DNA of 64,000 bases. Origin: Escherichia phage UE-S5a. Numbering within the stretch: the stretch's first letter is position 1; each line of letters opens with the position of its first letter. Below are positions 8,865 through 31,786 of this stretch, one piece after another. Made by a program: the position numbers and the translations under genes. The notes beneath the pieces were generated by a model. That model made no database searches. It worked only from the letters and a program-made list of their open reading frames with translations, and was not told the DNA's origin. The DNA is taken from the sequence record PP175015.1, one strand, 5' to 3'.

Positions 8865-10067
8865 ATGTTAAACTATAACGCTCCAATTGACGGTCAGAAA
8901 TCTAGCATTGATGGTGCTGGTTCCGATCAGATGAATACCTTTTACTGGCTGAAGAAAGCTATTATTCAGTCTCGTAAAGACCAGTACTTCATGCCACTGG
9001 CTAACACCATTAACATGCCTAAGAACTATGGTAAGACTGTTAAGGTGTATGAGTACGTTCCACTGCTCGACGATAAGAACATTAACGACCAGGGCATTGA
9101 TGCTAATGGTGCTACCATCGTTAATGGTAACCTGTATGGTTCTTCTAAAGACGTAGGTAACATCACTTCCAAACTGCCTCTGCTGACAGAGAATGGTGGT
9201 CGTGTTAACCGTGTAGGCTTTACCCGTCTGTCTCGTGAAGGCTCCATCCATAAGTTCGGTTTCTTCTACGAATTTACCCAAGAGTCCCTGGACTTTGATT
9301 CTGATGATCAACTGAAAGAACACCTGTCTCGCGAACTGATGAACGGTGCTGTACAGTTGACTGAAGCTGTTCTCCAGAAAGACCTGCTTGCTGCTGCTGG
9401 TACTGTATTGTATGCAGGTGCTGCTACTTCTGATGCTACCATCACCGGTGAAGGTTCTACTCCGTCTGTAGTTTCTTATAAGAACCTGATGCGTCTTGAC
9501 CAGATTCTTACTGAGAACCGTACCCCGACTCAGACTACTATTATCACTGGTTCTAAACTGACTGATACCAAAGTACTTGGTGGTACTCGTGTAATGTACG
9601 TTGGTTCTGAATTGGTTCCAGAACTGAAAGCGATGAAAGATCTGTTCGGTAACAAAGCATTCATCGAAATTCAGCACTATGCTGATGCCGGTACTCTGAT
9701 GAATGGTGAAGTTGGTTGTATCGACAAGTTCCGTATTATCCAGGTTCCTGAGATGCTGCATTGGGCAGGTGCTGGTGCTCAGGCTACTTCTAACCCAGGC
9801 TATCGTTCTACTATGGTTGGTGGTCAGGAACACTACGACGTATTCCCGATGCTGGTAGTTGGTGATGACTCCTTCTCTACCATTGGCTTCCAGACTGATG
9901 GTAAGTCTGTTAAGTTCTCCATCATGACTAAGATGCCTGGTAAAGAAACTGCTGACCGTAATGACCCGTATGGTGAAACTGGCTTCAGTTCTATCAAGTG
10001 GTACTACGGTATCCTGGTTAAACGCCCAGAACGTCTGGCTATGATTAAGACTGTTGCTCCTCTGTAA
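8865..10067 (+). CDS. Major capsid protein (N4 gp56-like)
   Basis: 400 aa; high-usage codons; followed by a strong terminator; position matches N4 MCP. Confidence 0.75.
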
Positions 10068-16810: not shown

Positions 16811-16873
16811 TACACTGGCTTACTGTAGAGTAAGCTTTCCATATACGATATAAGTTTGAACAGGAAACATGCT

Positions 16874-19800
16874 ATGTCAACATTTGACCGTCTGGCAGGT
16901 TTCGCAGACAGCATCACTAATGCTAAGCAAGTCGATGTCTCTACTGCAACCTCTCAGAAGCAAGCTGCACAAGGGCAAAGCCCTTTCCAATTAACCCCAG
17001 AGAATGCTTACAATCTCCAAACTGGTCGTGTAGGTAATCTTGGAATCGGTGCATTCGAACCAGGTTCACTTCAGGCAGATTTCACTCAAGCCTCCCCATT
17101 AGAAATTCTTAATAAATACGGTAATGAGCAAGGTCTACAGATTCTTAATAGCCGGGCTAATGCTGCTGATGCTGTACGTCAGGACTTATCTAAACAACGT
17201 ACTAACGCAGAAGCATTTGGTGATACTCTTTCTGGTGTTGGTCTTGGTGTTGCTAATACCCTTGGGGGCATTGCTGCTCTTGGCACAGGTCTGGTCAATG
17301 ATAATGCCGGGGCATCCATTGCTTCCGGTATGGATTGGCTGAATGAAGGGGTACACAATCTACAGTCTGATGCTCTGAATGCTACCCGTAAGGTTGTTCA
17401 GAATCAGAACCAGATTTCTGCACAAAAGAACCAGAGACTCTACGAAGAAGATATTAAAAATGGTGAGAACGATTTAGTTGCCTCCCTGTCTCGTATTGGT
17501 CGTGATGCTTTTGATTCTGTTGCTAATACACTTAATAATGGTATGGCTGCTACTGATGGGCTGAGTGAAGGTGTTGGTTCTCTCTTTACCGGTGGTCCAT
17601 TAATTCGTGGTGTATCTGCACTCGGTAAAGTAATGGTAGGTGGTGATAAAGCTGTTAAGGGTATTACCTTAGCTGCTGAGTTAGGTTCACGTCCTGCACA
17701 GGTTGCATTGTCTGCTGGTCGTGTTGCTGCACCTGCTATTGCAATTGGTGGTATGGAAGCTGGTGGTGCATACCAACAGACTGCTTCCGAAATCATGAAG
17801 ATGTCCCATCAAGAATTGGCAAGTAAGTCTCCTGTTTATCAACAGCATATCGCTGATGGTTTATCTCCTGATGAAGCACGTCGCCAAACTGCATCTGAAA
17901 CGGGTATCATTGCTGCTGGCTTAACTGCTCCGGTTGCTGCTGCTACTGGTCCTCTGGTATCCAAATTTGAACTTAACCCACTTAAGGTAGGTTCGCTGGC
18001 TGGTGCTGGTTCTAACATGCTACGTGAAACAGTAGAAGAAGGTATTCAGTCTGGTACAAGTCAGTTTGCACAGAACAAGGCAATTCAGGGTAATGTAGAT
18101 GCTAAGCGTGATTTGCTTAAAGGTGTCGGTGAGCAAGCAGGTCTTGGTGCACTCTACGGCTTCGGTAGTGCTGGTGTTGCTCAGGCTCCAGGTACAACTG
18201 TTAAAGCTGTTGGTGCTTCTGCTGGGCCTGCTTTACGTACTACTCTGGCTGGTGCTTCTCTGGTTGGTAGTGCATTAGCAAAAGCTGCCTCTCCTATTAC
18301 TAACATCCTGGTTCAGCGTGGCGAAGAAGTTGCTAAGCGTAATGAACAAGCTTCCCCTGTATCTGATGCTACGGTTAATGCTGCTGCACAAGAAGCTACT
18401 GCTCAAGCAGAACAAGCACAAGCAACTGTACAAGAAGCAGTAGATGCAATGGATATTTCTCCTGAAGATAAAGCTGCTGCTACTCAGTATGCTGCTGACT
18501 TAACTCAGGCAATGAAATTTGACCCAGTAGAACTGGAACAAGCTAACCCAGCAATCCGTGAAGCTGTTTCTGGTTCCACTAACCGTGTTGAAGCTATTCA
18601 GAAGATGGCTGACCTGGTTAATACTGCCGAAGACCCTAACGTTCAAATGGAAGCTGCAATCCAGATGTATGACAACATCATGTCTATGGATAGCTTCATT
18701 AACCGTGATCCTGGTGCTTTAGCTAATCTGGAACAGGGTTCTCCTGCTGCTAATATTGTTGACCAGTTCTCCGGCCTGATGGCTAACGTTCAGAATACAC
18801 CAAAGGTACTTCGTGCATTCCGTGCCATCCATTCTATGATTCAGGAACAGGCTGAAGCAGGTAAACTGAAAGCTACCGAAGAAGCTAACCAAGCCCAAGC
18901 AAACAACATTGCTATGGCTGCTGATATGTCTCCAGAAGTACTGGATGCAGACTCAGTGAACATGGTTCTGAAACATGCAAGTGAAGGTAAGATTACACTG
19001 GGGAATCGTCAGCGTGCTGCCCTGCAATCTGCTGCTGCTCTATTGCAAGGAGCACGAGAATTTGACGCTAAAGCAGAAGAACTAGGCTTACGTCCTCAAG
19101 ACATTGTTAGTAAACAGATTAAAACCGACGAGTCTCGTTCTAATGAAGGTCAGTACTCTGCGTTGCAACATGCTAAACGCATTCGTTCTGCGTACAACTC
19201 TGGTAACTTCGATTTGGCTTCCGCTTACCTCGACGACTTTATGAAGTTCGCCCAGCACATGCAGAATAAGGTCGGAGCGTTGAATGAGCATCTGATTTCT
19301 GGGAATGCGGATAAGAATAAGTCTGTCCATTATCAGGCTCTTACTCCCTCCCGTGAATGGGTACGTAGTCGTACTGGTCTTGGTGTTAATCCGTATGATA
19401 CCAAGTCGGTTAAGTTTGCCCAGCAAGTAGGACTGGAGGCCAAAACCGTAGCTGATATTGCTAACGCACTTGCTACGGCTTACCCGGAGCTTAATGTTTC
19501 TCATGTGAAGGTTACTCCATTAGATTCACGTCTGGACAAGCCTGCTGCCCAGGTAGTTAAAGAGTTCCGTCAAGGTGGTCTTGATGCCACTCAGTCTCAA
19601 CAGACCAATGAACCAGTGAATCAGGTTGATGAAACTCCTGCACCAGCGCAAGAGACTACTACTACTGTACAGCCTAAAGCTAAACCAGTGGTAGAAAATA
19701 AGACTGTTCCTGTTAAAGAGGCTAGTTCAAAAGCAGAAGAAGTCTCTACTACTAAGTCTGAAACAGTAGATGCTACCCTCACCAATGAGGATACCACTCA

Positions 19801-22800
19801 AAAAGTAGCTGAAACTAAAACGGAAATGGAAACAGTTTTCCCTGTCTATAACAATGACAAGACACCGAACCAGTTCCTGAAATCATTTACCCTGCCGGAA
19901 GAACCTAAGTCTCGCACCATTGGTTCTGAATCCCCTTTGACTGATATTAAGCAAGCACTGTCTTCTACTGCACGCTTTGAAGCATTCACTCAAAAAGAAA
20001 ATAACGCTCTCACAAGTGATGTGATTAAGCGTTATCAGGACTTAATGGGCTTTGGTGAAACTCTGAAGACTACTCTGTCTGATCGTCTGGCTAAGTTTCT
20101 TGCTAATAAGAACGTTGGTAAACGCTTTGCAGAAGGCACAGAGGCTAACCGTTGGGTAGGTGGTAAGTTACTTAATATCGTAGAGAAAGACGGAGACACC
20201 TTTAAGTTCAATGACCAGTTGTTAGAGACTGCTGTACTTGCTGGTCTGCAATGGCGACTGACTGCTACACAGAATGCTGCTGTTAAAGACATGAAAGATG
20301 TAGCTGCTATTACTGGAGTAGAAGCATCCTTGTTACCTGAAGGTATCCTGGCTGAATTTGAGAATGCTCAGACTCTGGTTGAAGCTACTAACTCACTGGC
20401 TCAAAAGATTGAATCTTACTGGGGATTGAATCGTAATCCTAATGCACCACTGGGTTATACCAAAGGTATTCCAATGGCAATGGCTACAGAGATTCTGTCT
20501 TCTCTCATTGAGATGGGTGAAGTTAAAGAGTCTATGCTTGATGTGTCTGAGATTGACCCAGACTCTAATAAGACCGTCGGTCTGTATACCATTGAGAAGC
20601 TGGATGATAACGATGCCATTAACAAGTTCCCTACTGCTATCGAGGAAGCTGTTCTCGTAGAACCAGAAGAGAAAATGTACTTTGGTGATGATATTCCTTC
20701 CGTGGCTCAAACTCAGTTACGTAACCCTGCTGTTAAGAATACCCCAGAGCAGAAAGCTGCTCTTAAAGCAGAACAGGCTACCGAGTTCCGTGTACACATG
20801 CCGATGGTTAACTTCTATGAAGCATTAGGTCGTGACAACATTCTGGAACTGATGGGTGCTGGTACTCTTAATCCTGAACTGCTGAACGTGAACACTGCTA
20901 AGTCACTGGAGGGTAAAAACCTGTCAGTGTCTATGGCATATGATTCCCTGTTCGGTGTAATCAACCAGTTACAGGAACAGGAGAATGGTCTGGATACGCC
21001 TATTCACTATGGTTACAACATGACCCGTGTAGGTCGTATGCAGATGTTAGGTAAGAACAACCCACAGTCCAGCAAGCTGGTTCGTGAAGCAATTCTGCCA
21101 ACCTTCTCTACTATCGACTTAAGTAATGAAAACAGTCAGACGTTCTCTGATTTCCAGTTAGGTCTGTCTCAGGCATTAGGTATCAAGGTTCATAATATGT
21201 CCCGTGAAGCTATGTCTGAAAAACTGACCAAAGCTCTGGAAGGTAATTTGAAACCTGCTGTTGATATGATGGTTGAGTTTGATAAGTCCGGGCACTTACC
21301 AGCCGATGCAGTAGATATTCTTAAGACATCTCTGGGTGGTGATAAATCATTCGTAGCTCTTATGGCTCTTATGGAGTATGCCCGTTACCTGAACAGTGAT
21401 GACCGTGCCAACTTTAATACCCCACTGTACGTTGAAGCCGATGGTGTAACCAACGGACCAATCAACGCAATGGTATTAATGACTGGTGGTAAGTTCACTT
21501 CAGACTGGATTAAGAATACTGCTAAAGGTGGTCTGTTCTTCGGTAAAGCTGGTAAGACTATGAATGAACATCGTTCACAGGATGACAGTGTTGACCTGTA
21601 TGAAGCATCTACCAATGGTCTGCAACAAGCACTTAATGAGTTACGTACTACTTACCGTAACAACGTTCCGGTTATGAACCAAATGAATCATCTTCAGAAG
21701 TTAATGGACCTGTTTATTAAAGACTTTAACCTGAATGAAGACGGTACTCTGGACCTGAAACGTGGTATCGCTAAAAACCCACTGACCATTACCATCTATG
21801 GTTCAGGTGCTCGTGGTATTGCTGGCAAGATGGTTAGTGCAATTACTGACACCATCTATGAACGATTCAGTGATGTTCTGCAAGCTCGTGCTGCTGACCC
21901 TAGCATTTCCCCAGCTATGGCAATGTTTGGTAAGGAGGCTGCGTCTGAGGCTGATGCTCAGGCTATGCTGGATACTTTCCTTACTTCTATGGAAGCACTG
22001 ACTGGTAATGTTCCAGTTATGCGTAAAGGTGAATTGTCTATTCAACAGGTAGAAGGTGCTCTGACTGGTAAGTTAGACCCTCAGAAGTTTACCGTATCGG
22101 GTAATGCCCTGAAGAACTTACAAGAGAACATGCTTCACCTGTTCGTTGAACCAATGCGTACTGGTATCCGGAATACTGTTGGGGAAGGTCTGATGCATTC
22201 TACTGAGAACTTGCAGAAGGCTACCCAGATTCAGTCTTTGGTTCTACAAGACATGTTCCAACAAGCAGTACAGGCTAAGCTGGCAGAAAAAGAAAAAGAC
22301 CCAACCTGGAAGAAGGGTGATTTCTTAACACAGAAAGAACTGAATGAAATTCAGGAATCATTGTCTCCACTGGCTCCAATGATTGAGACTGGTTCACAGA
22401 CTTTCTATATTGCTGGTAGTGAGAATACTGATGTTGCTAACCAGGTACTGGCTACCAACTTAGATGACCGTATGCGTGTGCCAATGAGCATCTATGCTCC
22501 TTCTCAGGCAGGCGTTGCAGGTATTCCATTTATGACCATTGGCACTGGTGATGGCATGATGATGCAGACCCTTTCTACTATGAAAGGTGCTCCGAAGAAT
22601 ACCCTGAAAATCTTTGATGGTATGAACATTGGTATCGACAACATCACTGATGCAAGTCGTAAAGCTAACGAGGCTGTATACACTTCCTGGCAGGGTAACC
22701 CTATCAAGAATGTTTATGAGTCTTTTACTAAGTTCATGAAGAACGTAGACTTCAGCAAACTATCGGATGAAACCAAACAGGCTATCGCTAAATCTGCTCT

Positions 22801-25800
22801 GGAATATGACCAGCGTGAAGGTGCTACCGATGACCTGTTACGTGTTGGTGCTGAACAGATTGAACGTAACCTGCGTAATATTGCTCTGGGTGTAGATATT
22901 CGTCACAAAGTAATGAACCAGGTACAGACTACTGTTGACCAGATGGCTGCTGTTGGTGCTCCTTATGTGAACAACGGTAAAATCTCTCTGGAAGGTCTGA
23001 CCGTAGACCAACAAGTAGCTAAGCTAAATGAACTGTTCGATGCTGAATTAAACAAACGTCGTGATGCAGTACGTGCTGCTAAAGTAGAACCAGTGAAAGA
23101 AGTGCCAGCAATGGAACAGGTTGGTCGTGTACTGAAGTCTGGTGTACGCCTACTGTCTAATACTGCTATCTCTAAGCTGGCTAAAGAGATGTCTCCGGAA
23201 CAGCAAGCAGTACTGAAAGAAGTACAGAAATCCCTTGCTGCTAAAGACTATAAGGTTGTTTACGGTACACCTTCCCAACTGGATGCTTATGCTATTGAGA
23301 AGAATATTACTCGCCCAGCACCAGAAGATATTGAAGCTGCTGAAGCTGGTAATGCGTATGGTTGGACTAACTTTGAAGATAAGACCATCTACTTAGTTAC
23401 CCCTTCCTTAGAGACTCTGGTTCATGAATTGGTGCATGCTTCTACTTTTGAATCTGTACTGGCTCACTATGAGGGTACTCCTAATGAAGCGGTCCAGAAC
23501 ATTGAAGACCTGATGAACCAGTTCCGTGCTCTGGATGTTAAGGATGAATCCCCGGCAGTTCGGGAAGCATATGCAGATGCTCTTAATACTATTAACGGTC
23601 ATTTATCTAATGGCTTTATTGAGCCAGCAATGGCTAAAGCTGCTGCACTGAATGAGTACATGGCATGGGGTTTAACCAACCGTGAACTGATTAGTAAGCA
23701 GAAGAAAACCACTGCACTTAAGACTATGGTTCAGGCTGTATATGAAGCAATTAAACGTCTGGTATTCGGGCGTAAGAAAGCACCAGCTAATGCAGATGAT
23801 ATGTTCTCTGGCTTACTGTTTAACTCGTCCGTAGTTATGCGTGGGCAAGCTCCTACTGCTGCTGTAGCCAAAGATACTACTCTGTTCCATAACAAAACGT
23901 ATGGTGACAATACTCGTCTGGAAGAGCTAGGGAAAACCTTCGATAAACTGATTACTGACTACATTGGTTCTGAACCAGTACAGCAAGTAATTCGTAAAGG
24001 TAAGTTCTCTGATGCAGTGGTTAATGCGACTAAAGTAACTCGTGATGTTCAGGCTCATGGCTTCACTATGAATATGCAGGAACAACGTCTCTTTACTAAC
24101 ATTGTTGCTGCTCTGGCTACTGAGGCTGCTATTAATCCTGCTGCTCTGGCTCGTGCGCAGGAATACTACACACATGTTACTAAGAACCTGACCGTTGAGT
24201 CATTCATGGCTGACCCAGATAGTACTAACCCTGCTGACCGTTACTATGCACAGCAGAAGTTCGATACCATCATGGGTGCTAACAACATTGAGTTTGATTC
24301 ACAAGGTCGTTCCTCCTTACTGCCTACCTTTATTGGTCTGGCGATGGTAAGTGAAGAGGTACGTAAAGTGCTGGCTGATATTCCAGTTATGAAAGTAGAC
24401 AAGAAATCTGGCAATACCGCTGATGCAATGCTGACTAACATCGGTACTGCTGCAATGGCTAGTCTGAATGCTCGTGTAGCAGGAGATACTAAAGCTACCA
24501 ACGTACAGGAAGGTATGGATGCACTGGCTCAGACAATCATGCAGACCAGTCTTAATGCACAATCCTTCTATGATTCCGTTGCTACTCCTACGGGTAATGC
24601 TATTGATCGTGCTAACCAGTATCTGGTGGACTCTATTGATGTACTGTCTACCCGTGCTTTAGAAGGTGCTCGTGAAGTTGCAGCTAATACCAAGAACCCG
24701 TTGGTTAAAGGTGCTGCCCATGCTGCACAATTAATAGCTGCTATTGCTACAGAGAAGAATGGTGCAATCGTAGCCGAAGGTGTTATGGCTGCAATGAACC
24801 AAGGTAAAGTATGGCAACCCTTTCACGATCTGGTTAATGACTTAACTGGTCGTACTAAGAGTAATGCTTCTGTATATGATTTGATTAAGGCAGTGCGTGC
24901 CCAGGTACAGGCTGACCGTCAACAGTTCCGTGAACATCTGCCCACCACTATCGCATCTAAGTTCAGCCGTAAGCTGACTAATGATGAGTGGAAAGCAATG
25001 CATACCGGTATGGGTAAAACCGACTTAGCTGTTCTGCGTGACACTATGTCTCTGGGTGAAATTCGTGACTTGCTGACTGACCAAAAGATTGTTGACCGTG
25101 AAGTGAATAAGCTGGAAGCAGATTTGCAGAAACAAGCAGGACGTAACTGGCCTTTGATTAGCCGTAAATCTAAGCAACTGGCTCAGTACATGATTAATGG
25201 CACAGTTGGTAATAACTTGCTGCGTAATGCTACTGCAATCTCTCGTATGCTGGGTGAACGACAGGCTGCACGTTCTACTGTAGACGTAGCTCAACTGGAT
25301 AAACTGATTACTCTGTATGCACTGGAAGCAATGAGTAAGACTGACCGTGAGATGTTATCTTCACTGGCTCAATCAGAAGCTGATGGGATTGATTTTGCTA
25401 CTTCTTATCTGGTTGGACAGCGTAAAGATGAAATGGCTAAAGCCAAATCTGACATGCGTGCAACCCTGAACCAGTACAAAGGGTATATTCCTGGTGAGAC
25501 TAAACAGGGTGTTAACTTGATTGTTGCTGAAGATAGTCAGTTTGCTGATTTGATTGAGAAGTCCTATGTACGTCTGGGTACTTATCAGGGTAGCTCTGCT
25601 AATCGTGGTCCAGCACGTAGCTACTACTTTGCACCGGTACAGGCACAGGCTCCATTCTCGCAAGGTATCTTACAGAACGTTCGCAATACTGCTGGTGGTG
25701 TAGACCTTGGTACAGGCTTTACGATGGGTACAATGGTAGCTGGTCGTATCACTGACAAGCCTTCTGTAGACCGTATCACTAAAGCACTGGCTCGCGGTGA

Positions 25801-27226
25801 ACGTGGTAATGAACCACTGCTGCCTGTATATGATGATAAAGGCAATGTGGTTGCTTATGAGCAATCTATTGACCCTAACATGCTGAAGCACATTGAGGGT
25901 GAGAACCATCTCGCTCGTGCAATCGGTGTATGGCGTGGTCGTCAGGTAGAGGAAGCTAAGGCTCAGCGTTTCAACGATATGCTGATTGAGAACCTGCATA
26001 GCATGTATAAAAACGACATTAAAATGTCTGCCTCTAACAAGTCACAGTACGTTAACCTTCTTGGTTCTAAACTGGACCCAGTAACTGCTGATGCCCTTAA
26101 GCTGATGAACAGTGAAACTCGTCAGAAAGCAGAAAGTCTGTTTGGTCCTGGTGAGTTGTGGGTACGTCGTGACATGCTGAATGATGCACTGGGCTATCGT
26201 GCAGCTTCCGTAGGTGATGCCTGGTCTGGCAATTCTCGTTGGTCACCAGAAACACTGGATACCTTCAAGAAAGCTATGTTGGGTGTATTCGGCAACCGTG
26301 CTTATAAGTATGTAATGGGTGGTGAGAACCTGGTTCAAAACTTAGTTAAAGAAGCTAAGACTCTGATTGTAGTTAAATCAGTAGTTGTTCCTGCTGTTAA
26401 CTTCCTGGCTAACCTTTACCAGATGGTTGGTCGTGGTGTACCTGTTAAGAACATTGCTAAGAGCATTCCACAGAAGACTGCTGAGATTAACCAGTACCTG
26501 AAATCTCGTCTGCGTCAGGTAGATGCAGAAGCAGAATTACGTGCAGCTACTAACCCGAACCAGATTCGTAAGCTTAAGGCTGAAATTCAGTCCATCACTG
26601 ATAGTCATAAGCGTATGAGTATCTGGCCTCTGTTAGAAGCTGGTGAGTTTTCTTCAATTGCAGATGCTGGTATTGGACGAGATGACATCCTGATTACTGA
26701 AGGTAAACTTCACGAATACATGGATAAACTGGTTGATAAGTTACCTAAGTCTGTACGTAATGCTGGACGTTATGCCCTTATCACCAAGGATACTGCTTTA
26801 TTCCAGGGTATCCAGAAGACGGTTGAGTACTCTGACTTTATTGCTAAAGCAATCATCTATGATGATTTGACTCAGCGTAAAGGTAAGACTCGTGAAGAAG
26901 CACTTGGACGTGTAACGGAAGAGTTCATTAACTATGACCGTCTGCCTGGTCGCTTCCGTGGGTATATGGAAAGTGTTGGTCTTATGTGGTTCTATAACTT
27001 TAAGATTCGTTCTGCAAAAATTGCAGTATCCATGATTCGTAACAACCCGGTACACGCAGCTATGGCTATGTTGGCTCCAACTCCTACCATGTTTGGTAAT
27101 GTTGGTTTACCTATTCAGGACAACATCTTCAGTATTGCTGCACAAGGCAATCTCGGTTACTCCTGGGGCTTCGGTCAGGGACTTCGTGCCCATAACCTTA
27201 ACCCTTGGCTCAATCTAGCTAACTAA
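16874..27226 (+). CDS. Virion-encapsidated RNA polymerase (vRNAP), N4 gp50-like
   Basis: About 3450 aa (track ORF starts on TTG at 16856; ATG at 16874 has AGGAAA RBS); central region carries T7-like polymerase motifs: PLYVEADGVTNGP (motif A-like), RGIAKNPLTITIYGSGARG (motif B, R..K..YG), IFDGMNIG (motif C). Confidence 0.9.
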   Translation: MSTFDRLAGFADSITNAKQVDVSTATSQKQAAQGQSPFQLTPENAYNLQTGRVGNLGIGAFEPGSLQADFTQASPLEILNKYGNEQGLQILNSRANAADAVRQDLSKQRTNAEAFGDTLSGVGLGVANTLGGIAALGTGLVNDNAGASIASGMDWLNEGVHNLQSDALNATRKVVQNQNQISAQKNQRLYEEDIKNGENDLVASLSRIGRDAFDSVANTLNNGMAATDGLSEGVGSLFTGGPLIRGVSALGKVMVGGDKAVKGITLAAELGSRPAQVALSAGRVAAPAIAIGGMEAGGAYQQTASEIMKMSHQELASKSPVYQQHIADGLSPDEARRQTASETGIIAAGLTAPVAAATGPLVSKFELNPLKVGSLAGAGSNMLRETVEEGIQSGTSQFAQNKAIQGNVDAKRDLLKGVGEQAGLGALYGFGSAGVAQAPGTTVKAVGASAGPALRTTLAGASLVGSALAKAASPITNILVQRGEEVAKRNEQASPVSDATVNAAAQEATAQAEQAQATVQEAVDAMDISPEDKAAATQYAADLTQAMKFDPVELEQANPAIREAVSGSTNRVEAIQKMADLVNTAEDPNVQMEAAIQMYDNIMSMDSFINRDPGALANLEQGSPAANIVDQFSGLMANVQNTPKVLRAFRAIHSMIQEQAEAGKLKATEEANQAQANNIAMAADMSPEVLDADSVNMVLKHASEGKITLGNRQRAALQSAAALLQGAREFDAKAEELGLRPQDIVSKQIKTDESRSNEGQYSALQHAKRIRSAYNSGNFDLASAYLDDFMKFAQHMQNKVGALNEHLISGNADKNKSVHYQALTPSREWVRSRTGLGVNPYDTKSVKFAQQVGLEAKTVADIANALATAYPELNVSHVKVTPLDSRLDKPAAQVVKEFRQGGLDATQSQQTNEPVNQVDETPAPAQETTTTVQPKAKPVVENKTVPVKEASSKAEEVSTTKSETVDATLTNEDTTQKVAETKTEMETVFPVYNNDKTPNQFLKSFTLPEEPKSRTIGSESPLTDIKQALSSTARFEAFTQKENNALTSDVIKRYQDLMGFGETLKTTLSDRLAKFLANKNVGKRFAEGTEANRWVGGKLLNIVEKDGDTFKFNDQLLETAVLAGLQWRLTATQNAAVKDMKDVAAITGVEASLLPEGILAEFENAQTLVEATNSLAQKIESYWGLNRNPNAPLGYTKGIPMAMATEILSSLIEMGEVKESMLDVSEIDPDSNKTVGLYTIEKLDDNDAINKFPTAIEEAVLVEPEEKMYFGDDIPSVAQTQLRNPAVKNTPEQKAALKAEQATEFRVHMPMVNFYEALGRDNILELMGAGTLNPELLNVNTAKSLEGKNLSVSMAYDSLFGVINQLQEQENGLDTPIHYGYNMTRVGRMQMLGKNNPQSSKLVREAILPTFSTIDLSNENSQTFSDFQLGLSQALGIKVHNMSREAMSEKLTKALEGNLKPAVDMMVEFDKSGHLPADAVDILKTSLGGDKSFVALMALMEYARYLNSDDRANFNTPLYVEADGVTNGPINAMVLMTGGKFTSDWIKNTAKGGLFFGKAGKTMNEHRSQDDSVDLYEASTNGLQQALNELRTTYRNNVPVMNQMNHLQKLMDLFIKDFNLNEDGTLDLKRGIAKNPLTITIYGSGARGIAGKMVSAITDTIYERFSDVLQARAADPSISPAMAMFGKEAASEADAQAMLDTFLTSMEALTGNVPVMRKGELSIQQVEGALTGKLDPQKFTVSGNALKNLQENMLHLFVEPMRTGIRNTVGEGLMHSTENLQKATQIQSLVLQDMFQQAVQAKLAEKEKDPTWKKGDFLTQKELNEIQESLSPLAPMIETGSQTFYIAGSENTDVANQVLATNLDDRMRVPMSIYAPSQAGVAGIPFMTIGTGDGMMMQTLSTMKGAPKNTLKIFDGMNIGIDNITDASRKANEAVYTSWQGNPIKNVYESFTKFMKNVDFSKLSDETKQAIAKSALEYDQREGATDDLLRVGAEQIERNLRNIALGVDIRHKVMNQVQTTVDQMAAVGAPYVNNGKISLEGLTVDQQVAKLNELFDAELNKRRDAVRAAKVEPVKEVPAMEQVGRVLKSGVRLLSNTAISKLAKEMSPEQQAVLKEVQKSLAAKDYKVVYGTPSQLDAYAIEKNITRPAPEDIEAAEAGNAYGWTNFEDKTIYLVTPSLETLVHELVHASTFESVLAHYEGTPNEAVQNIEDLMNQFRALDVKDESPAVREAYADALNTINGHLSNGFIEPAMAKAAALNEYMAWGLTNRELISKQKKTTALKTMVQAVYEAIKRLVFGRKKAPANADDMFSGLLFNSSVVMRGQAPTAAVAKDTTLFHNKTYGDNTRLEELGKTFDKLITDYIGSEPVQQVIRKGKFSDAVVNATKVTRDVQAHGFTMNMQEQRLFTNIVAALATEAAINPAALARAQEYYTHVTKNLTVESFMADPDSTNPADRYYAQQKFDTIMGANNIEFDSQGRSSLLPTFIGLAMVSEEVRKVLADIPVMKVDKKSGNTADAMLTNIGTAAMASLNARVAGDTKATNVQEGMDALAQTIMQTSLNAQSFYDSVATPTGNAIDRANQYLVDSIDVLSTRALEGAREVAANTKNPLVKGAAHAAQLIAAIATEKNGAIVAEGVMAAMNQGKVWQPFHDLVNDLTGRTKSNASVYDLIKAVRAQVQADRQQFREHLPTTIASKFSRKLTNDEWKAMHTGMGKTDLAVLRDTMSLGEIRDLLTDQKIVDREVNKLEADLQKQAGRNWPLISRKSKQLAQYMINGTVGNNLLRNATAISRMLGERQAARSTVDVAQLDKLITLYALEAMSKTDREMLSSLAQSEADGIDFATSYLVGQRKDEMAKAKSDMRATLNQYKGYIPGETKQGVNLIVAEDSQFADLIEKSYVRLGTYQGSSANRGPARSYYFAPVQAQAPFSQGILQNVRNTAGGVDLGTGFTMGTMVAGRITDKPSVDRITKALARGERGNEPLLPVYDDKGNVVAYEQSIDPNMLKHIEGENHLARAIGVWRGRQVEEAKAQRFNDMLIENLHSMYKNDIKMSASNKSQYVNLLGSKLDPVTADALKLMNSETRQKAESLFGPGELWVRRDMLNDALGYRAASVGDAWSGNSRWSPETLDTFKKAMLGVFGNRAYKYVMGGENLVQNLVKEAKTLIVVKSVVVPAVNFLANLYQMVGRGVPVKNIAKSIPQKTAEINQYLKSRLRQVDAEAELRAATNPNQIRKLKAEIQSITDSHKRMSIWPLLEAGEFSSIADAGIGRDDILITEGKLHEYMDKLVDKLPKSVRNAGRYALITKDTALFQGIQKTVEYSDFIAKAIIYDDLTQRKGKTREEALGRVTEEFINYDRLPGRFRGYMESVGLMWFYNFKIRSAKIAVSMIRNNPVHAAMAMLAPTPTMFGNVGLPIQDNIFSIAAQGNLGYSWGFGQGLRAHNLNPWLNLAN

Positions 27227-27263: not shown

Positions 27264-27764
27264 CTAAACTAACACCCAGTCTTCAGCTAATATATCTGAT
27301 TGGGATGGGACCCAAGGCATAAACTGGTCATCAACAGTTTTGATTCCTAACCATGGACGAGGTTTCAATTCATCAGCAAGTCCTGGACGCTCTAAGCTAC
27401 TGCTATTCCATTCTTGAGCAGCAACGTACTCAATGTACATTCCTTTACCATTCCAGCCTTTACGGGCTAGTTTGAAGCCGGATTTGAGAAGCTCTACTGC
27501 ATGACCAAAGGTGCAACCTTTTTCTACGTCATGGTACGCAGTTTCAAATGCAGATTTAGGTGACCAGCTAATATAGCCACGGAACTGAGGATGGTTAGAC
27601 TTAGAGTCTGGGTACTCTACTAAGTAACCTTCTTCTAATGGGTCTTCATTAGCAGGTACATCCCAGCCACGAAGTTTGCAGTATGTTTCTTTGTTCATTC
27701 GGAAACCATTTACACACTTGGTTCCGATATAATTGGTAAAATGGACTTTAATTTCTTCTGACAT
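27264..27764 (-). CDS. DUF2829-domain protein (Tad2-like anti-Thoeris candidate) with N-terminal extension
   Basis: Track start is GTG; ATG 27764 has GAGG RBS; C-terminal half LARKGWNGKGMYIEY...MPWVPSQSDILAEDWVLV matches the DUF2829 pattern as I recall it. Confidence 0.5.
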   Translation of the reverse strand: MSEEIKVHFTNYIGTKCVNGFRMNKETYCKLRGWDVPANEDPLEEGYLVEYPDSKSNHPQFRGYISWSPKSAFETAYHDVEKGCTFGHAVELLKSGFKLARKGWNGKGMYIEYVAAQEWNSSSLERPGLADELKPRPWLGIKTVDDQFMPWVPSQSDILAEDWVLV

Positions 27765-27882
27765 AACTACCTCAAATGAGAAAGCCCTCACTAGGAGGGC
27801 TTGTTTTGTTTTGGCTTCATGAGCCTTACCACATGTCGGGTAGTTCAGTACCTTTCGGTAAAAACTACCTTACACTTTTGAA

Positions 27883-28263
27883 TCAGATTGTACAACCACC
27901 ACCATCACAGGTGTTGTTTTCTGCAAAGGAAGCCAGAGCTTTAGCAGTCTCTTCTTTCTCATGCAGTGCCTGACGTAGCAGGTAACCTTCTAATTCCCAA
28001 ATCTTATTGAATGCATTTTCATATGCATACTGACGGCCTTTTTGCTCATCATAGATAGCTGGGTCAACACAGGCAGATACACCTTCAACTTTGAAGCCAT
28101 TTTCCAAGATGATAATGCAATAGGTTATCAGACCCAGGTTAGCCAAATCATCTGCCGGGAGTGCAGATGGATCAACAAATGCAGACTTCACTGCATCAGC
28201 TCCATTAAAATAGTAGACGCTCTTAATCTTAGCTTCGATTGCTTCTTTACTTACTGTTGCCAT
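27883..28263 (-). CDS. Phage gp49/gene-66 family protein (N4 gp49-like)
   Basis: Start moved to second ATG (MATVSKEAIEAK) with GAGG RBS; family call from recalled similarity to PF13876-type proteins. Confidence 0.45.
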   Translation of the reverse strand: MATVSKEAIEAKIKSVYYFNGADAVKSAFVDPSALPADDLANLGLITYCIIILENGFKVEGVSACVDPAIYDEQKGRQYAYENAFNKIWELEGYLLRQALHEKEETAKALASFAENNTCDGGGCTI

Positions 28264-28405
28264 TATTAGCCTCATAGAGTGGTTTGAGTTTGTACTTAAA
28301 CATGACTGCGTTGTTATAGGCTACGCTACCTGCAAACACCAAAGACTTGCGTCCTCGATTATCCGTTACCTCATAGGCATACGGGGTTGAGATTAGGTCA
28401 ATCAT
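28247..28405 (-). CDS. Small hypothetical protein
   Basis: Track ORF starts on TTG; only an internal ATG is available; weak. Confidence 0.2.
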   Translation of the reverse strand: MIDLISTPYAYEVTDNRGRKSLVFAGSVAYNNAVMFKYKLKPLYEANNGNSK

Positions 28406-28440
28406 ATTGATTATCCAATTATTAATACTCAAATAAAAAA

Positions 28441-28472
28441 GTCCCCCAGAGTGACGGCTCCAGGGGACTTAG
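28441..28472 (-). terminator. Candidate terminator downstream of the tRNA cluster (minus-strand sense)
   Basis: A-run on + strand followed by GTCCCC...GGGGAC inverted repeat (T-run in minus sense). Confidence 0.35.
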
Positions 28473-28713
28473 TACTATTTACCCATAGCTGGGAGGCTTT
28501 TGGTTCTTACCACGAAGACAGTCCACGCTGACTAGACTTGGGATTGATAGTCCCGTTCCTGTGGTAATTACTCAGGCTAGGATTTAAGGAGTTCCTATTC
28601 TCCAGCGAAATTCCCGTCGAGGGGAATAACAATACAATAGCAGTCACTGGACTGTCTTACCAGTGTTGTCTTTAGAGTGCGATGCAATCAGGACTATGTT
28701 ACTGCTGAATGGG

Positions 28714-28787
28714 TGTCCACTACTGGATTTGAACCAGTGACTTTCCGATTATTAGTCGGTTGCTTTCCCCGTCTAAGCTAAGCGGAC
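28714..28787 (-). tRNA. tRNA; anticodon loop reads CUAAUAA, i.e. anticodon AAU (formally Ile, unusual A34)
   Basis: Hand fold: acceptor GTCCGCT/AGTGGAC (one G-U), D-stem GCTT/AAGC, anticodon stem CCGA/TCGG, T-arm ACTGG-TTCAAAT-CCAGT; no encoded CCA. Confidence 0.55.
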
Positions 28788-28793
28788 ATAATA

Positions 28794-28869
28794 TGGTTAC
28801 CCGGACAGGATTCGAACCTGCGTCCTAGTTGGTTTACTAGTGGGGCTTTACCACTAAGCCTACCGGGTA
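28794..28869 (-). tRNA. tRNA with encoded CCA; anticodon arm non-canonical by hand fold (identity unresolved)
   Basis: Perfect acceptor TACCCGG/CCGGGTA, discriminator A, CCA encoded; D-stem GGCT/AGCC; T-arm GCAGG-TTCGAAT-CCTGT; anticodon region folds as CTAGT/ACTAG with a 6-nt loop. Confidence 0.5.
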
Positions 28870-29170
28870 TTAATAGGTGAGTCATGCCAGACTCTAACTG
28901 GCTCCTTCTTCGCAATCCTTACATACCCCTACATAATTATTGCGTTAAGCTTTTTTGTTTAAGTTTAAGTGAAGGCGTTCTTGCTGACTCATAATTGGGT
29001 TGGGCGTTTGACGAATGACTAGTTCGTTACTACCCGTTTGCCATAAGTACCTGGCGACTTTGGTTTGAGGTGGGAGTCCGAGTCCTGTACAGCCTTACCG
29101 TTCACACATTGGCAGCGTATCTAGAGTTGCACTTCCGGCAACTGGATTTAACTGTTACACCTCAAATAGG

Positions 29171-29245
29171 CAGTGGGGGATGGAATCGAACCATCAGTAT
29201 TAAGTCTTATTCGTGCACCAAGCACGCTAGTAGATTACTCTACCG
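29171..29245 (-). tRNA. tRNA-like element (canonical T-arm, acceptor pairing not resolved)
   Basis: T-arm GATGG-TTCGATT-CCATC present in minus sense; no matching 5' acceptor found by hand within 75 nt. Confidence 0.3.
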
Positions 29246-29315
29246 GAGGGAATCGAACCCTATCTACTTCACCAGACCCACCATAATTCTTCCAATTTAG
29301 AGTAGCATTGTCACG
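29238..29315 (-). tRNA. tRNA-like element (T-arm motif only)
   Basis: AGGG-TTCGATT-CCCT in minus sense; cloverleaf not resolved. Confidence 0.25.
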
Positions 29316-29367
29316 GTGGGTGCTTTAAATGCCGGGAAACATTTAAATATACAATGCTACTTTGAAT

Positions 29368-29445
29368 TGGTTATCAGTGAAGGATTCGAACCTCCGGTTG
29401 GAGTCTATAGCTTACCGCAGCAGCCCTCCAATCTAGCGGTGTCAC
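29368..29445 (-). tRNA. tRNA-like element with encoded CCA; possible long or interrupted tRNA
   Basis: CCA + discriminator + acceptor 3' strand ACTGATA + T-arm GGAGG-TTCGAAT-CCTTC; exact complement of the acceptor (TATCAGT) only found about 120 nt away at 29485-29491. Confidence 0.3.
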
Positions 29446-29493
29446 ACTTAGTCCAAACTTGAACATGTCAAGCCATCTCGTGCAACTGATAAT

Positions 29494-29560
29494 TGGTTCC
29501 GGCGTCTGGACTCGAACCAGAACACTCATGCCGTGCACGACACTAGTACCTACACCGGAA
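29494..29560 (-). tRNA. Short tRNA-like element with encoded CCA
   Basis: CCA, acceptor TCCGGTG/CGCCGGA, T-arm TCTGG-TTCGAGT-CCAGA; only about 66 nt, too short for standard D + anticodon arms. Confidence 0.3.
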
Positions 29561-29626
29561 TTAATTGCCAGGGATTCCACCTGGCTCCATCTGTTTTTAT
29601 AGTCACTCAGATATCGTCTGGACTGT

Positions 29627-29704
29627 AGGCATGGGTGGGAATCGAACCCACAAACCATTCAGCACTGTAGCCTCACGCTCTACCTATTTGAGCTATCACA
29701 TACC
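29627..29704 (-). tRNA. tRNA-like element
   Basis: T-arm GTGGG-TTCGATT-CCCAC, D-arm-like GCTC-AAATAGGTA-GAGC, acceptor GGTATGT/CCATGCC (6/7 pairs); anticodon arm not resolved. Confidence 0.35.
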
Positions 29705-30384
29705 ATTGATTAACTCCCCGTTTCTAATACATGGACGGGGACACTCCACGGTCGTTTGATAATCAGGACGACTCACTCCTGACTGACGCTTGGCTTATTA
29801 GGCTGCCATCAGAACAACATCATCGTTTGCATTTATGTTATTGGTTCGTTTCTAAAAAACCGCATAATCGCTTACGAAAACTATCAAAGAGTACACTAGC
29901 TCTGGGCCACGCTTGTGGACATCGGCCTACCTTCCACAGCTAATCAACTAATGCACTCACTGATAGCCCATAATAGGGGGGAGGGGACGAATCCTCCCTT
30001 TATACCCTATATTGCATGTAAGATCTAACAGTTCGATGTTGTAGGTAGCTAGGCTATCCGACATTTAACCCAGCCCATATAGGGGCTTATGTGATTAGAA
30101 TGCTCAACATTGAGCGGTTAGTTTGATAAGGGATCTGAAGCCTTATCCTAAAGATACTAACCTTTGGGATATAGCCTAAGATTCAGAAATGGCCCCTATA
30201 GGGAGAGGCCATTGATTAACCCGAATGTTGCTTTACATTTGCTGTGATAACCAATTCTTAAAATAGTCTGTCTGACGGATGGGGGTCCACCCCTAGCGTC
30301 AGTGCCATACGGCAAAGATTAAGTTAAGAAAGGTTATGATAGGAGTTCCTATCTCAAAGGATTCTAACAGAACCCTTCACGATA

Positions 30385-30555
30385 TTAACTACTCTTTTTT
30401 AATGCCTTTACTTCACCATCTTTATACCAAGCATATGGTATTAAGATTTTGCAACCTTCTGAATCAATGTGGAATGCTTTGTTCCCTTCAACAGGTTCTC
30501 CACCCACGAAAGAACTAACCTTTCCATTGAGCCAGTGAATAGTAAATTTGTTCAT
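30385..30555 (-). CDS. Small hypothetical protein (about 56 aa), below ORF-track cutoff
   Basis: ATG with AGGG RBS; MNKFTIHWLNGKVSSFVGGEPVEGNKAFHIDSEGCKILIPYAWYKDGEVKALKKSS; coordinates hand-counted. Confidence 0.3.
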   Translation of the reverse strand: MNKFTIHWLNGKVSSFVGGEPVEGNKAFHIDSEGCKILIPYAWYKDGEVKALKKSS

Positions 30556-31231: not shown

Positions 31232-31786
31232 TTACGCCTTTATTAAATTAAGAAGGTTTTGGAAAGCTGGGAGATTTACACCAGCGTGGATTGCACCGAT
31301 TGCATCTGCTAAGTGCTCATTCTTATTCAGAAGTTTACCTTTTTTATCTGTGAGCCAGTTGGCTTCTGGATAGATAGCATGGGCAGCACGAATCATCGTG
31401 TCTTTGGATGCAGTTTTATCACCGACCAGTGCAAGTTTATTTTCAATTGGGGATACTTCAAAGATTGGACAACCCAATGCACGAAATGCACCAATTAATC
31501 CTACGCATACGCCATAGGATTTCATACCGTTAGCAGACTGAGAGCCTACTGGTACTTCTACGAATACTGCTTTAGCAGACCGTAACCATTCTTCACAACC
31601 AAGAAACAAATCGTGAGCGGCTTGTATATCTTTGGAGTTGGTTCGAACTTGTTTGTTGTGGTCAACTTCAGTTTGAACCAGTTTAAGTTCGACCTGCTCG
31701 AAGACGCCGGACTCAATGTCCAGCATCCCACGAGCTAAACCCCAATTGCGGAGACTAATGTCTGCACCAACAATTGGGATTTTCAT
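31232..31786 (-). CDS. RuvC-like Holliday junction resolvase
   Basis: N-terminal MKIPIVGADISLRNWG (RuvC-type Asp), mid FVEVPVGS (Glu), C-terminal EHLADAIGAIHAG (Asp/His), resembling RuvC catalytic motifs. Confidence 0.55.
   Translation of the reverse strand: MKIPIVGADISLRNWGLARGMLDIESGVFEQVELKLVQTEVDHNKQVRTNSKDIQAAHDLFLGCEEWLRSAKAVFVEVPVGSQSANGMKSYGVCVGLIGAFRALGCPIFEVSPIENKLALVGDKTASKDTMIRAAHAIYPEANWLTDKKGKLLNKNEHLADAIGAIHAGVNLPAFQNLLNLIKA

Follow-up and report, generated by a model that had tools for sequence, protein, structure and literature searches.

A tmRNA-like messenger module and tRNA-like RNAs without anticodon arms in an N4-like Escherichia phage

Results

A protein-free RNA island

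We analysed a stretch of 64,000 nucleotides (nt) from Escherichia phage UE-S5a (PP175015.1), hereafter the window, in which a minus-strand cluster of transfer RNA (tRNA)-like elements is preceded by an element that resembles the messenger half of transfer-messenger RNA (tmRNA). The 1.7 kilobases (kb) around the T-arm cluster are 100% identical to Escherichia phage UE-M3 (PP301342.1; Schitoviridae, Gamaleyavirus, N4-like), and the label UE-M3 is used below for locus features of the window sequence. Relatives for comparison were taken from IMG/VR and GenBank phage records, and the loci fetched are cited by L numbers (L003, for example). The locus closes the early/middle gene block of this N4-like phage and is situated between the virion RNA polymerase (3456 amino acids (aa); 16856–27226, plus strand) and a RuvC-like resolvase (31232–31786, minus strand). 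From about 30000 to 28440 the window contains no credible protein gene. The protein-free RNA island extends over about 1.5 kb of the minus strand, from approximately 29966 to 28439, and its downstream two-thirds are formed by the T-arm region.

The motif GGTTCRANTCC occurs seven times in the 64-kb window, always on the minus strand and always between 28725 and 29648, as compared with an expected number of 0.20, and none of 100 shuffled sequences reached seven. A preliminary description of this DNA had reported at least seven minus-sense T-arm motifs within 1 kb, and the count agrees with it. The cluster does not end where that description placed its upstream limit, and runs on into the tmRNA-like messenger module, which is the most unusual part of the locus.

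Architecture of the tmRNA-like messenger module

The module occupies 29715–29966 and consists of a long helix (helix H) with its loop (loop X), a region resembling tmRNA pseudoknot 1 (PK1), a tag reading frame, a hairpin around the stop codons and two pseudoknots (PKa and PKb):

29948–29966, minus strand: 5' strand of helix H, CTATCAGTGAGTGCATTAG, pairing with 29881–29899
29900–29947, minus strand: loop X of helix H, hypervariable, pseudoknot-like in UE-M3
29881–29899, minus strand: 3' strand of helix H, pairing with 29948–29966
29841–29881, minus strand: PK1-like region (GUUUU/GAAAC and GGU/ACC) and single-stranded lead-in ACAUAAAU, conserved
29795–29830, minus strand: tag frame GCA AAC GAT GAT GTT GTT CTG ATG GCA GCC TAA TAA, encoding ANDDVVLMAA and two stops (ARAGORN with -ps80)
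29783–29812, minus strand: P5-like hairpin with the stop codons in its loop, the Ala codons covarying with the downstream strand
29751–29782, minus strand: pseudoknot PKa (TCAGGA/TCCTGA and GTCG/CGAC), both stems with compensatory changes
29715–29750, minus strand: pseudoknot PKb (CGTGGA/TCCATG and TCCCCG/CGGGGA), supported by covariation

Helix H is well maintained among relatives. Between 16 and 19 of its 19 positions can pair in 28 of 29 loci, and 14 can in the remaining one (L123), where the register is bulged; over 24 variants, 10 of the 19 pairs show compensatory changes. The same helix encloses at least eight unrelated versions of loop X, 36–83 nt in length, and that of L084 and L100 contains the T arm TTAGG-TTCAACT-CCTAA. 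The PK1-like region is kept in N4-like phages, P1, Ackermannviridae, lambdoid phages and one siphovirus, and is almost invariant, so that covariation is uninformative in this part of the module.

The frame follows the lead-in directly, the RNA reading ACAUAAAU|GCA AAC GAU GAU GUU GUU CUG AUG GCA GCC UAA UAA. All homologous loci fetched contain a tag frame of 10 codons that starts with AN[DE] and ends with [AV]A and a stop. Ten tag variants were counted, the tenth being a second nucleotide form of one peptide with a different trailing stop context. The peptides include ANDDVVLMAA, ANEEAYLMVA, ANDNVVLMAA, ANDDVVLMVA, ANDDVILMAA and ANDQTFLAVA and, beyond the N4-like phages, ANDDLMMVAA (P1), ANDNAFLMAA (Serratia phage Kevin) and ANEEMYLAVA (the lambdoid phage HK633). 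The last two codons vary synonymously (GCA GCC, GCG GCG, GCU GCU, GCG GCU and GCC GCU). No in-frame start codon for the tag is present in any variant, and an overlapping AUG is out of frame and missing in Kevin. Every lead-in has U(–5) and A(–4) ahead of GCA (acAUAAAU, agAUAAAU, aaGUAAAU or aaAUAUCU); their counterparts in Escherichia coli tmRNA are U85 and A86, the latter with a reported role (PMC2481249). Genuine permuted tmRNA genes found by the same 17-mer also carry the lead-in, in the form AACAUAAAU|GCAAACGAU.

Both downstream pseudoknots are of the H type and come in two sequence types. Most of the paired positions are changed between these types, and the pairing is kept; compensatory changes in PKa are seen across the two types and also across P1 and Kevin. 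Because the MAFFT alignment was out of register, the two types were counted separately and by fixed offsets. In this count, 96.7% and 97.0% of the cells in the core are paired, as compared with 28–50% for slid partners, and 10 and 7 pairs are changed on both sides, values reached by 0 or 1 of 500 shuffles. Downstream of PKb, a CCA follows within 1–2 nt, mostly as A-CCA, in 16 of the 24 distinct variants from N4-like contigs and in front of several different neighbours, and UE-M3 has GTTAAT instead. P1, HK633 and the siphovirus Sa179lw have other tails at this point, which lead into another long helix.

This second long helix, CACAACAGGTAAGAGC...GCTCTTTCCGTTGTG, encloses a hypervariable loop and follows PKb in P1 (L156, 2105–2200), HK633 (L159, 1680–1790), Sa179lw and some N4-like phages (L010, offsets +117 to +190). 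It resembles helix H in sequence, and a further copy in P1 encloses a T arm. On the other side of the module, at about 29975–30000 on the minus strand, the hairpin GGGAGGATTCGTCCCCTCC resembles a degenerate T arm; in L011, L014–L016 and L020 a normal tRNA, for Gly or Gln, has its 3' end at this site, just ahead of the module. In L084 the tRNA block upstream of the module includes a tRNA with a CUA anticodon (9535–9610), called 'tRNA-Pyl' by ARAGORN, a potential amber suppressor.

Distribution of the core

The 183-nt core of the module matches 314 phage records from several families; among the 40 matches listed, three overlap a 'hypothetical protein' and nearly all lie where no feature is annotated. 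Its N4-like carriers are phages of Escherichia, Klebsiella, Salmonella and Shigella. The P1 copy follows dmt and precedes the tRNA-Asn and tRNA-Thr genes, and among the Ackermannviridae it is found in Kevin, KpS110, Det7 and others. The lambdoid phage HK633 has it between Q/PR' and the holin gene. In Sa179lw it forms a unit of its own, with a promoter-like site recognized by eye (TTGACA-17-TAGATT) and a terminator hairpin.

With the HK633 version as a BLAST query, the core was found in 350 of 5426 complete E. coli genomes, at 141 chromosomal and 219 plasmid places; nearly all of the matches listed have no annotated feature, and the plasmids listed are of about 95–115 kb. The only chromosomal copy inspected, in E. 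coli O26 RM8426 (L162, 3501–3658), belongs to a lambdoid prophage of a pathogenic serogroup and lies in an unannotated 1.07-kb gap between a Q-type antiterminator and the holin gene, a position from which it would be transcribed with the late genes. By comparison, the exact N4-type PK1 sequence, a narrow pattern, had no match in 185,579 bacterial species genomes; the corresponding scan of metagenomes returned 14 contigs, most of them of about 70 kb and all with the N4-type tag and core. The module was found only in phages, prophages and phage-like plasmids, and N4 itself is without it.

In the literature, no tmRNA-like RNA is described for N4-like, P1, lambdoid or Vi1-like phages in the sources covered, which did not include the P1 genome paper; the text matches were citations of ARAGORN only. 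A messenger-only tmRNA derivative common to these four kinds of phages appears to be undescribed as well as unannotated.

Comparison with complete tmRNA

In Rfam E-value mode, 29798–29900 resembles the tmRNA_permuted model with 32.7 bits (E = 2e-4; gathering score 47). Scores against RF04321 were 32.7 and 36.1 bits, as compared with a threshold of 47, and those against RF00023 were 13–15.5 bits. No tmRNA family reached the Rfam threshold in 12 loci, and ARAGORN at default settings made no call in the eight loci tested. At the nucleotide level there is no similarity to E. coli ssrA outside the tag, and RNAduplex energies for base-pairing between the phage core and the host tmRNA are no better than those of shuffled sequences. 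Judged from its sequence, the module is like the messenger half of tmRNA in build and fails tmRNA membership.

Several candidates for a tRNA-like half were considered and set aside. With a lowered threshold, ARAGORN joins AGCGTGG of loop X to the 3' strand of el7, a tRNA-like element described below, into a 'tmRNA' at 29913–29627; L003 and L014 have the same el7 together with a different X, and the own 5' strand of el7 keeps pairing. The other low-threshold calls, intron-bearing tRNAs and other 'tags', were inconsistent and were treated as noise. Loop X itself was rejected as the tRNA-like domain of a permuted tmRNA, being hypervariable and having a T arm in one lineage only; in that lineage an ACCA is located in an internal loop, not at an end. 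Helix H is absent from P1 and Sa179lw. Two T-loop motif matches elsewhere in the Sa179lw genome fall within coding genes and have no stem.

Two near-canonical tRNAs and el7

Membership in the tRNA family was judged by the gathering threshold of Rfam RF00005 (29 bits) or by a default ARAGORN call. Two elements at the downstream end of the island belong to it, and a third, el7, is annotated as a tRNA:

28714–28787, minus strand: el1, tRNA-Ile with anticodon AAU (ARAGORN; Rfam 63 bits)
28794–28869, minus strand: el2, tRNA with the 6-nt anticodon loop AAACCA, U1-A72 and A-CCA (ARAGORN; Rfam 40.7 bits)
29627–29704, minus strand: el7, tRNA-like, annotated as tRNA-Cys(ACA), with canonical D and T arms and an irregular anticodon arm

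Only el1 and el2 pass the RF00005 threshold, and el3 to el8 give no match to this family even at E values up to 10. The preliminary description had recognized just two good cloverleaves, both with odd anticodon arms, and both points are borne out: ARAGORN and Rfam accept these two alone, one being a tRNA-Ile with AAU and the other having a 6-nt loop with a two-base 'anticodon'. Neither ARAGORN in relaxed mode nor Rfam in E-value mode made canonical tRNAs of the other five T arms, and the outcome that would have refuted the preliminary description, canonical folding of every element, did not occur. An acceptor stem together with a T arm whose loop reads GTTCRANYC is found in el1, el2, el5, el6 and el7, and twice within el3+4. 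By comparison, a 7-nt anticodon loop with U33 on a 5-base-pair (bp) stem is found in el1 (CUAAUAA, with one A·A mismatch at the top of the stem) and in neither el2, with its 6-nt loop, nor el7, with its G·G mismatches.

The tRNA-Ile(AAU) is conserved, and Ile-AAT is annotated in many Gamaleyavirus genomes. In the long open reading frames (ORFs) of the window, AUU makes up 63% of the Ile codons and UGU 73% of the Cys codons; A34 anticodons pair in Watson–Crick fashion with such preferred U-ending codons, which offers a plausible reason for the unusual A34. The tRNA-Ile(AAU) probably supplements decoding by reading AUU, the commonest Ile codon of the phage. The second tRNA, el2, is conserved in five variants with little variation.

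The tRNAscan-SE list in the UE-M3 paper contains Ile-AAT, Undet-NNN and Cys-ACA (PMC11927229), and the annotated 'Cys-ACA' corresponds to el7. This element has two extra nucleotides after the acceptor stem and no encoded CCA. Its anticodon stem contains two G·G mismatches, and the relative L014 has C rather than U at position 33. In the window it remains under the ARAGORN and Rfam thresholds, and in L003 it is called Cys(aca). The acceptor stem stays paired through one-sided changes among three variants.

An el7-like element was also observed in Serratia phage Kevin (L157, 1267–1356), of a family unrelated to the N4-like phages. It is a 90-nt 'tRNA-Cys(ACA)' whose anticodon arm is long and irregular; its T arm is identical in sequence to that of el7, and the two also share the UACAG loop motif. 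The tmRNA-like unit follows immediately downstream, and the element is possibly a recurrent partner of the module.

tRNA-like RNAs without an anticodon arm

The remaining five T-arm motifs are non-canonical and sit in four structured RNAs (el7, el6, el5 and el3+4), and el8 is a fifth such RNA without a T-arm motif. All five have an acceptor-like closing stem, and four have T arms. From el7 to the end of the island, the elements are arranged as follows:

29560–29626, minus strand: leader AGTCCAGACGATATCTGAG... and pseudoknot-like GCCAGG-TGGAATC-CCTGGC/ATTCC ahead of el6, structure assigned by eye only
29494–29559, minus strand: el6, 66-nt mini tRNA-like RNA, 23 pairs, 4 of them compensatory
29368–29491, minus strand: el5, 124-nt tRNA-like RNA, 5 of 39 pairs compensatory
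29291–29367, minus strand: long hairpin S1, AGTAGCATTGT...ACAATGCTACT, between el5 and el3+4, single-sequence fold only
29172–29282, minus strand: el3+4, a single 111-nt RNA, 30 pairs, 11 of them compensatory
29061–29166, minus strand: el8, 106-nt RNA with the 9-bp closing stem TTTGAGGTG/CACCTCAAA, which covaries, followed by CCA
28870–29060, minus strand: structured spacer domain with loop motif AUGUAGGGGUAUGUAAGG, fold prediction
28439–28470, minus strand: intrinsic terminator closing the island, 13-bp stem and T run

In el6, the smallest of these RNAs, a 7-bp acceptor stem (U1-A72) is combined with an unpaired stretch that contains GG, a T arm and an A-CCA end, and a short hairpin takes the position of the anticodon arm. 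In el5, the acceptor stem TATCAGT/ACTGATA, the T arm and the A-CCA end surround an 84-nt insert with hairpins where the D and anticodon arms would be. Its acceptor stem covaries among relatives (TATCAGT/ACTGATA, TACCAGT/ACTGGTA and TACTGGT/ACCAGTA), as do its T stem and one inner hairpin. The T arms at 29182 and 29249 both belong to el3+4, where a single 6-bp stem encloses a D-arm-like hairpin, a first T-arm-like hairpin (29247–29261), two more hairpins and a second T arm (29179–29195); the closing stem occurs as GGTGGG/CCCACT, GACGGG/CCCGTT and GGCAAG/CTTGCC. In el8 there is no canonical T loop. The preliminary description had noted acceptor partners that were displaced or missing. Displaced they are, lying at a greater distance than in a tRNA, and none of them is missing.

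None of el5, el6, el3+4 and el8 has an anticodon arm. Direct reading of the sequence shows that el2, el5, el6 and el8 have U1-A72, A73 and an encoded CCA in common. No acceptor stem in the island contains G3·U70. In the relative L011, the acceptor, D and T arms of one tRNA are canonical, and a 75-nt insert stands where its anticodon arm would be. The common design is the upper half of a tRNA with its decoding arm replaced; many of the elements also have a D-like part, and A-CCA is frequently encoded. Of the origins offered in the preliminary description, unusual phage tRNAs apply to tRNA-Ile(AAU) and the tRNA with the 6-nt loop and not to the other elements; tRNA-derived RNAs, leaving aside the word 'regulatory', fit all elements except those two.

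BLAST comparisons reveal that blocks of the island are present, absent or reordered as units among relatives. The leader (29560–29626) moves with el6 as one module, and in L015 and L020 the order of the blocks 29624–29491 (leader and el6) and 29500–29377 (el5) is swapped. Each exchanged block ends in A-CCA followed by AT. Such reordering rules out the small annotated ORFs and argues against simple decay. The leader and el6 are 97% and el8 99% identical in phage N4, as compared with 69% for the RuvC-like resolvase beside the island (N4 versus UE-M3). The S1 helix has a different insert in relatives (L010). Pairing of el6 in trans with helix H, considered on account of shared words of 6–7 nt, showed no covariation and was dismissed as coincidence.

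The hairpin-loop motif AUGUAGGGGUAUGUAAGG of the spacer domain (28920–28951, minus strand, between el8 and el2) was also seen in Sa179lw (L158, 1877–1908), about 300 nt downstream of the tmRNA-like core and inside the stand-alone RNA unit that holds the core there. It may be a further conserved part of the same RNA system.

Annotation and surroundings of the island

The annotated ORF UEM3_030 ('hypothetical protein'; 29374–29580, minus strand) lies over el5 and el6, and phage Bas96 has nine such short ORFs; ORFs annotated over the structured RNAs are probably annotation artefacts. The terminator at 28439–28470 is the sole strong minus-strand terminator within 28300–30400. The 240 nt between tRNA-Ile and the terminator (28471–28709, minus strand) are non-coding, include predicted hairpins, are kept in relatives and are partially conserved in N4 (82% over 77 nt); no function or family was found for them. 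Beyond the terminator, a 130-aa protein (27883–28275, minus strand) is a member of the N4 gp49 / Sf6 gene 66 family (Pfam PF13876); the phage 24-32N record gives its homologue the unconfirmed label 'anti-CRISPR protein'. The gene next downstream of the island (27264–27791, minus strand) encodes a 175-aa protein in which Pfam recognizes a Tad2-like domain (Thoeris anti-defense 2-like; E = 3e-24), which suggests that the neighbourhood is an anti-defence or accessory region.

Discussion

Relation to known RNAs

The module and tmRNA (SsrA; RF00023, RF04321/RF01849) have in common an AUG-less frame that starts with GCA AAC GA, U-A at positions –5/–4, a motif by which tmRNA sets its frame, an upstream pseudoknot-like element, stop codons in a hairpin loop and H-type pseudoknots thereafter. 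Like the E. coli tag ANDENYALAA, the frame has 10 codons, and it ends with Ala-Ala or Val-Ala and a stop. With permuted tmRNA genes it shares a helix-loop-helix ahead of PK1 in gene order. The module differs from tmRNA in having no tRNA-like domain with G3·U70 and CCA, in having two rather than three downstream pseudoknots and in scoring under the Rfam and ARAGORN thresholds. G3·U70 is the pair needed by alanyl-tRNA synthetase. Phage tmRNAs are known from the mycobacteriophage Bxz1 group, Wildcat and Bacillus phage G, and DS6A has the tRNA-like domain only (PMC4131195, PMC11915505). All of these are phage-borne tmRNA derivatives, as the module would be. The other known phage tmRNAs are complete and are detected by software; DS6A, an example of a phage that has kept one half alone, retains the tRNA-like half, whereas the module described here retains the messenger half. 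The phages on the published tmRNA lists are mycobacteriophages, Bacillus phage G and DS6A, and neither P1 nor any N4-like or lambdoid phage is among them.

The tRNA-like RNAs can likewise be set beside several known classes. RNAs C and D (species 1 and 2) of phage T4 are stable and non-decoding, are encoded among tRNA genes and have tRNA-like processing and ends. Compared by description only, the elements of the island are a different set, arranged as a mosaic, several of them with two T arms or long inserts. YrlA and related bacterial Y RNA-like mimics, which also occur in phages, combine an acceptor-like stem with D and T arms, have no anticodon arm and are processed and modified like tRNA. 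The island elements differ from them (RF02553) in scoring 15.6–18.7 bits in Rfam against a gathering score of 69, in having no Ro-binding stem and in having no Rsr gene nearby. PKb followed by A-CCA resembles, in topology only, the pseudoknotted acceptor arm of the tRNA-like structure of turnip yellow mosaic virus (RF00233), an H-type pseudoknot with a second stem that leads into ACCA-3'; UE-M3 and many other phages have no CCA there, and no T-arm or anticodon mimic is attached. GOLLD (RF01998) and ROOL (RF03087) are long structured non-coding RNAs of phages and prophages that are typically found beside tRNA genes. The island gives no Rfam match to either at E values up to 10, and hosts and architecture differ.

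Alternative explanations

The preliminary description had put forward a decaying tRNA array, in which the non-canonical elements would be functionless pseudogenes of a once larger cluster. Related N4-like phages do have ordinary Asn, Pro, Ser, Gln, Tyr, Asp, Gly and Thr tRNA genes at this place, the T-arm-like remnant of UE-M3 at about 29975–30000 stands where relatives have the 3' end of a tRNA, and the anticodon stem of el7 has mismatches. Such a history does not fit the stems of el3+4, el5, el6 and el8, which hold their pairing through compensatory, two-sided changes, nor the hairpins in place of the anticodon regions, which are conserved and covary. The 97–99% identity of el6 and el8 in N4 and the recurrence of the same architectures with different sequence, for example in the L011 tRNA with its 75-nt insert, point the same way, and we regard decay as very improbable. 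A protein-coding role, with small proteins as in the GenBank 'hypothetical protein' ORFs (UEM3_030; those of Bas96), is scarcely credible. ORFs of 64–94 aa do occur on both strands and some are annotated, but the substitutions beneath them are compensatory in RNA stems and not codon-patterned, the module reordering in L015 and L020 would break them, and near-identical genomes are annotated inconsistently.

Two further explanations take the tRNA-like features at face value. The tRNA-like ends might solely serve as punctuation, marking cleavage sites for RNase P and the 3'-end enzymes so that neighbours like the tmRNA-like module or the true tRNAs are released or stabilised, the excised pieces themselves having no role. 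The exchanged modules, each ending in stem, A-CCA and AT before the next module, have the form that this would predict, as does the CCA 1–2 nt after the core in 16 of 24 N4-like variants, whatever lies downstream; in several relatives, moreover, the 3' end of a normal tRNA is directly upstream of the core. The interiors of el5, el3+4 and el8, however, are long, conserved and covarying, far beyond the needs of a cleavage signal; el6 and el8 are present in N4, which has no tmRNA-like module; and the module stands without a tRNA-like neighbour in Sa179lw and in a 3-kb stretch of HK633. Pure punctuation is accordingly unlikely. A canonical, alanine-accepting tmRNA hidden from the software, composed of the module with el7, el6 or an X domain, is a shade less likely still. 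It would account for the ARAGORN call at the 80% threshold, which joins AGCGTGG in X to the el7 T arm and 3' strand with the tag ANDDVVLMAA, and the order helix, X, helix, PK1, tag and pseudoknots would be the permuted one if X were a tRNA-like domain; X of L084 and L100 has a T arm with the loop UUCAACU. Against it, L003 and L014 combine el7 with an X without AGCGTGG while the 5' strand of el7 stays paired, the hypervariable X mostly lacks a T arm, and G3·U70 is found in no acceptor stem. P1 and Sa179lw are without helix H, the Sa179lw genome is without a tRNA-like gene, and in the exact scan no bacterial species genome had the N4-type module.

A modular set of tRNA-part RNAs

On the evidence of covariation and of the exchange of whole blocks, the island is a conserved modular set of structured RNAs built from parts of tRNA and led by the tmRNA-like messenger module. 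Together with the reading that follows, we consider this the likely explanation, rather than a collection of decaying genes. The main uncertainty is functional, not structural. A single long transcript would cover the island and end at the terminator (28439–28470), and the tRNA-like ends would recruit the host RNase P, 3'-end trimming and CCA enzymes, by which stable small RNAs would be cut out. The RNAs without an anticodon cannot decode. Most likely they are tRNA mimics, and we would guess that they tie up host factors that bind tRNA, such as defence enzymes or other factors acting on the acceptor end. A role against factors of this last kind is attractive because the Tad2-like gene is the next one downstream. 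The tag frame would be translated, and most likely the module provides the template with which nascent proteins are tagged by a route resembling trans-translation.

Several observations weigh against this reading. A tRNA-like domain with G3·U70, a T arm and CCA, joined via helix P2, was not found. The UE-M3 module scores below the gathering score of the tmRNA model, and ARAGORN at default settings finds no tmRNA in it. The whole genome of Sa179lw contains no tRNA, tmRNA or foldable T arm, and the 3-kb stretch around the HK633 module contains no tRNA or tRNA-like gene. With no canonical tRNA-like domain, a hypervariable X and a Sa179lw genome without tRNA genes, classical trans-translation is not demonstrated. 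The P5-like hairpin overlaps the last codons of the frame and may explain part of the tag codon pattern. The diversity of el7 and el2 is low (three and five variants), so that their structures rest mostly on single-sequence folds, and a recent transfer, and not constraint, could be the source of the high identity that el6 and el8 show in N4 and UE-M3.

A wider proposal, which we put forward tentatively and hold to be possible rather than probable, is that at least five unrelated enterobacterial phage groups share a mobile messenger half of tmRNA that acts in tagging on stalled or vacant ribosomes, with the tRNA mimics belonging to the same toolkit. The groups are the N4-like phages, the P1-like phage-plasmids, the lambdoid prophages (in which the core lies between Q and the lysis genes), the Ackermannviridae and a siphovirus. 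Trans-translation is thought to need a covalently joined tRNA–mRNA hybrid. Under the proposal of a mobile messenger RNA, the phage tag ((A)AN[DE]xx..[AV]A) might be added by borrowing the SmpB/tmRNA entry machinery of the host; alternatively, entry at an Ala codon might be driven by the pseudoknots and independent of an initiator, as in the intergenic-region internal ribosome entry sites of dicistroviruses. The anticodon-less RNAs of the N4-like phages would then be acceptor-arm mimics within a toolkit for translation hijacking or anti-defence.

Implications

The present annotation covers the island with spurious ORFs, at least one tRNA mimic has been entered as a tRNA-Cys, and the core is unannotated in P1, in lambdoid prophages of pathogenic E. 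coli and in candidates for phage therapy (N4-like and Vi1-like phages). Its presence in model phages and therapeutic candidates makes the module readily accessible to experiment and of interest for phage engineering. The anticodon-less RNAs enlarge the small set of phage tRNA mimics and, lying beside a Tad2-like anti-defence gene, are candidates for countering systems that attack tRNA ends. If the tag is used, these phages would rewrite the ribosome-rescue and protein-tagging pathway of the host with a template of their own, and the version without a tRNA would represent either a new way to load a message on the ribosome or a new kind of tmRNA antagonist.

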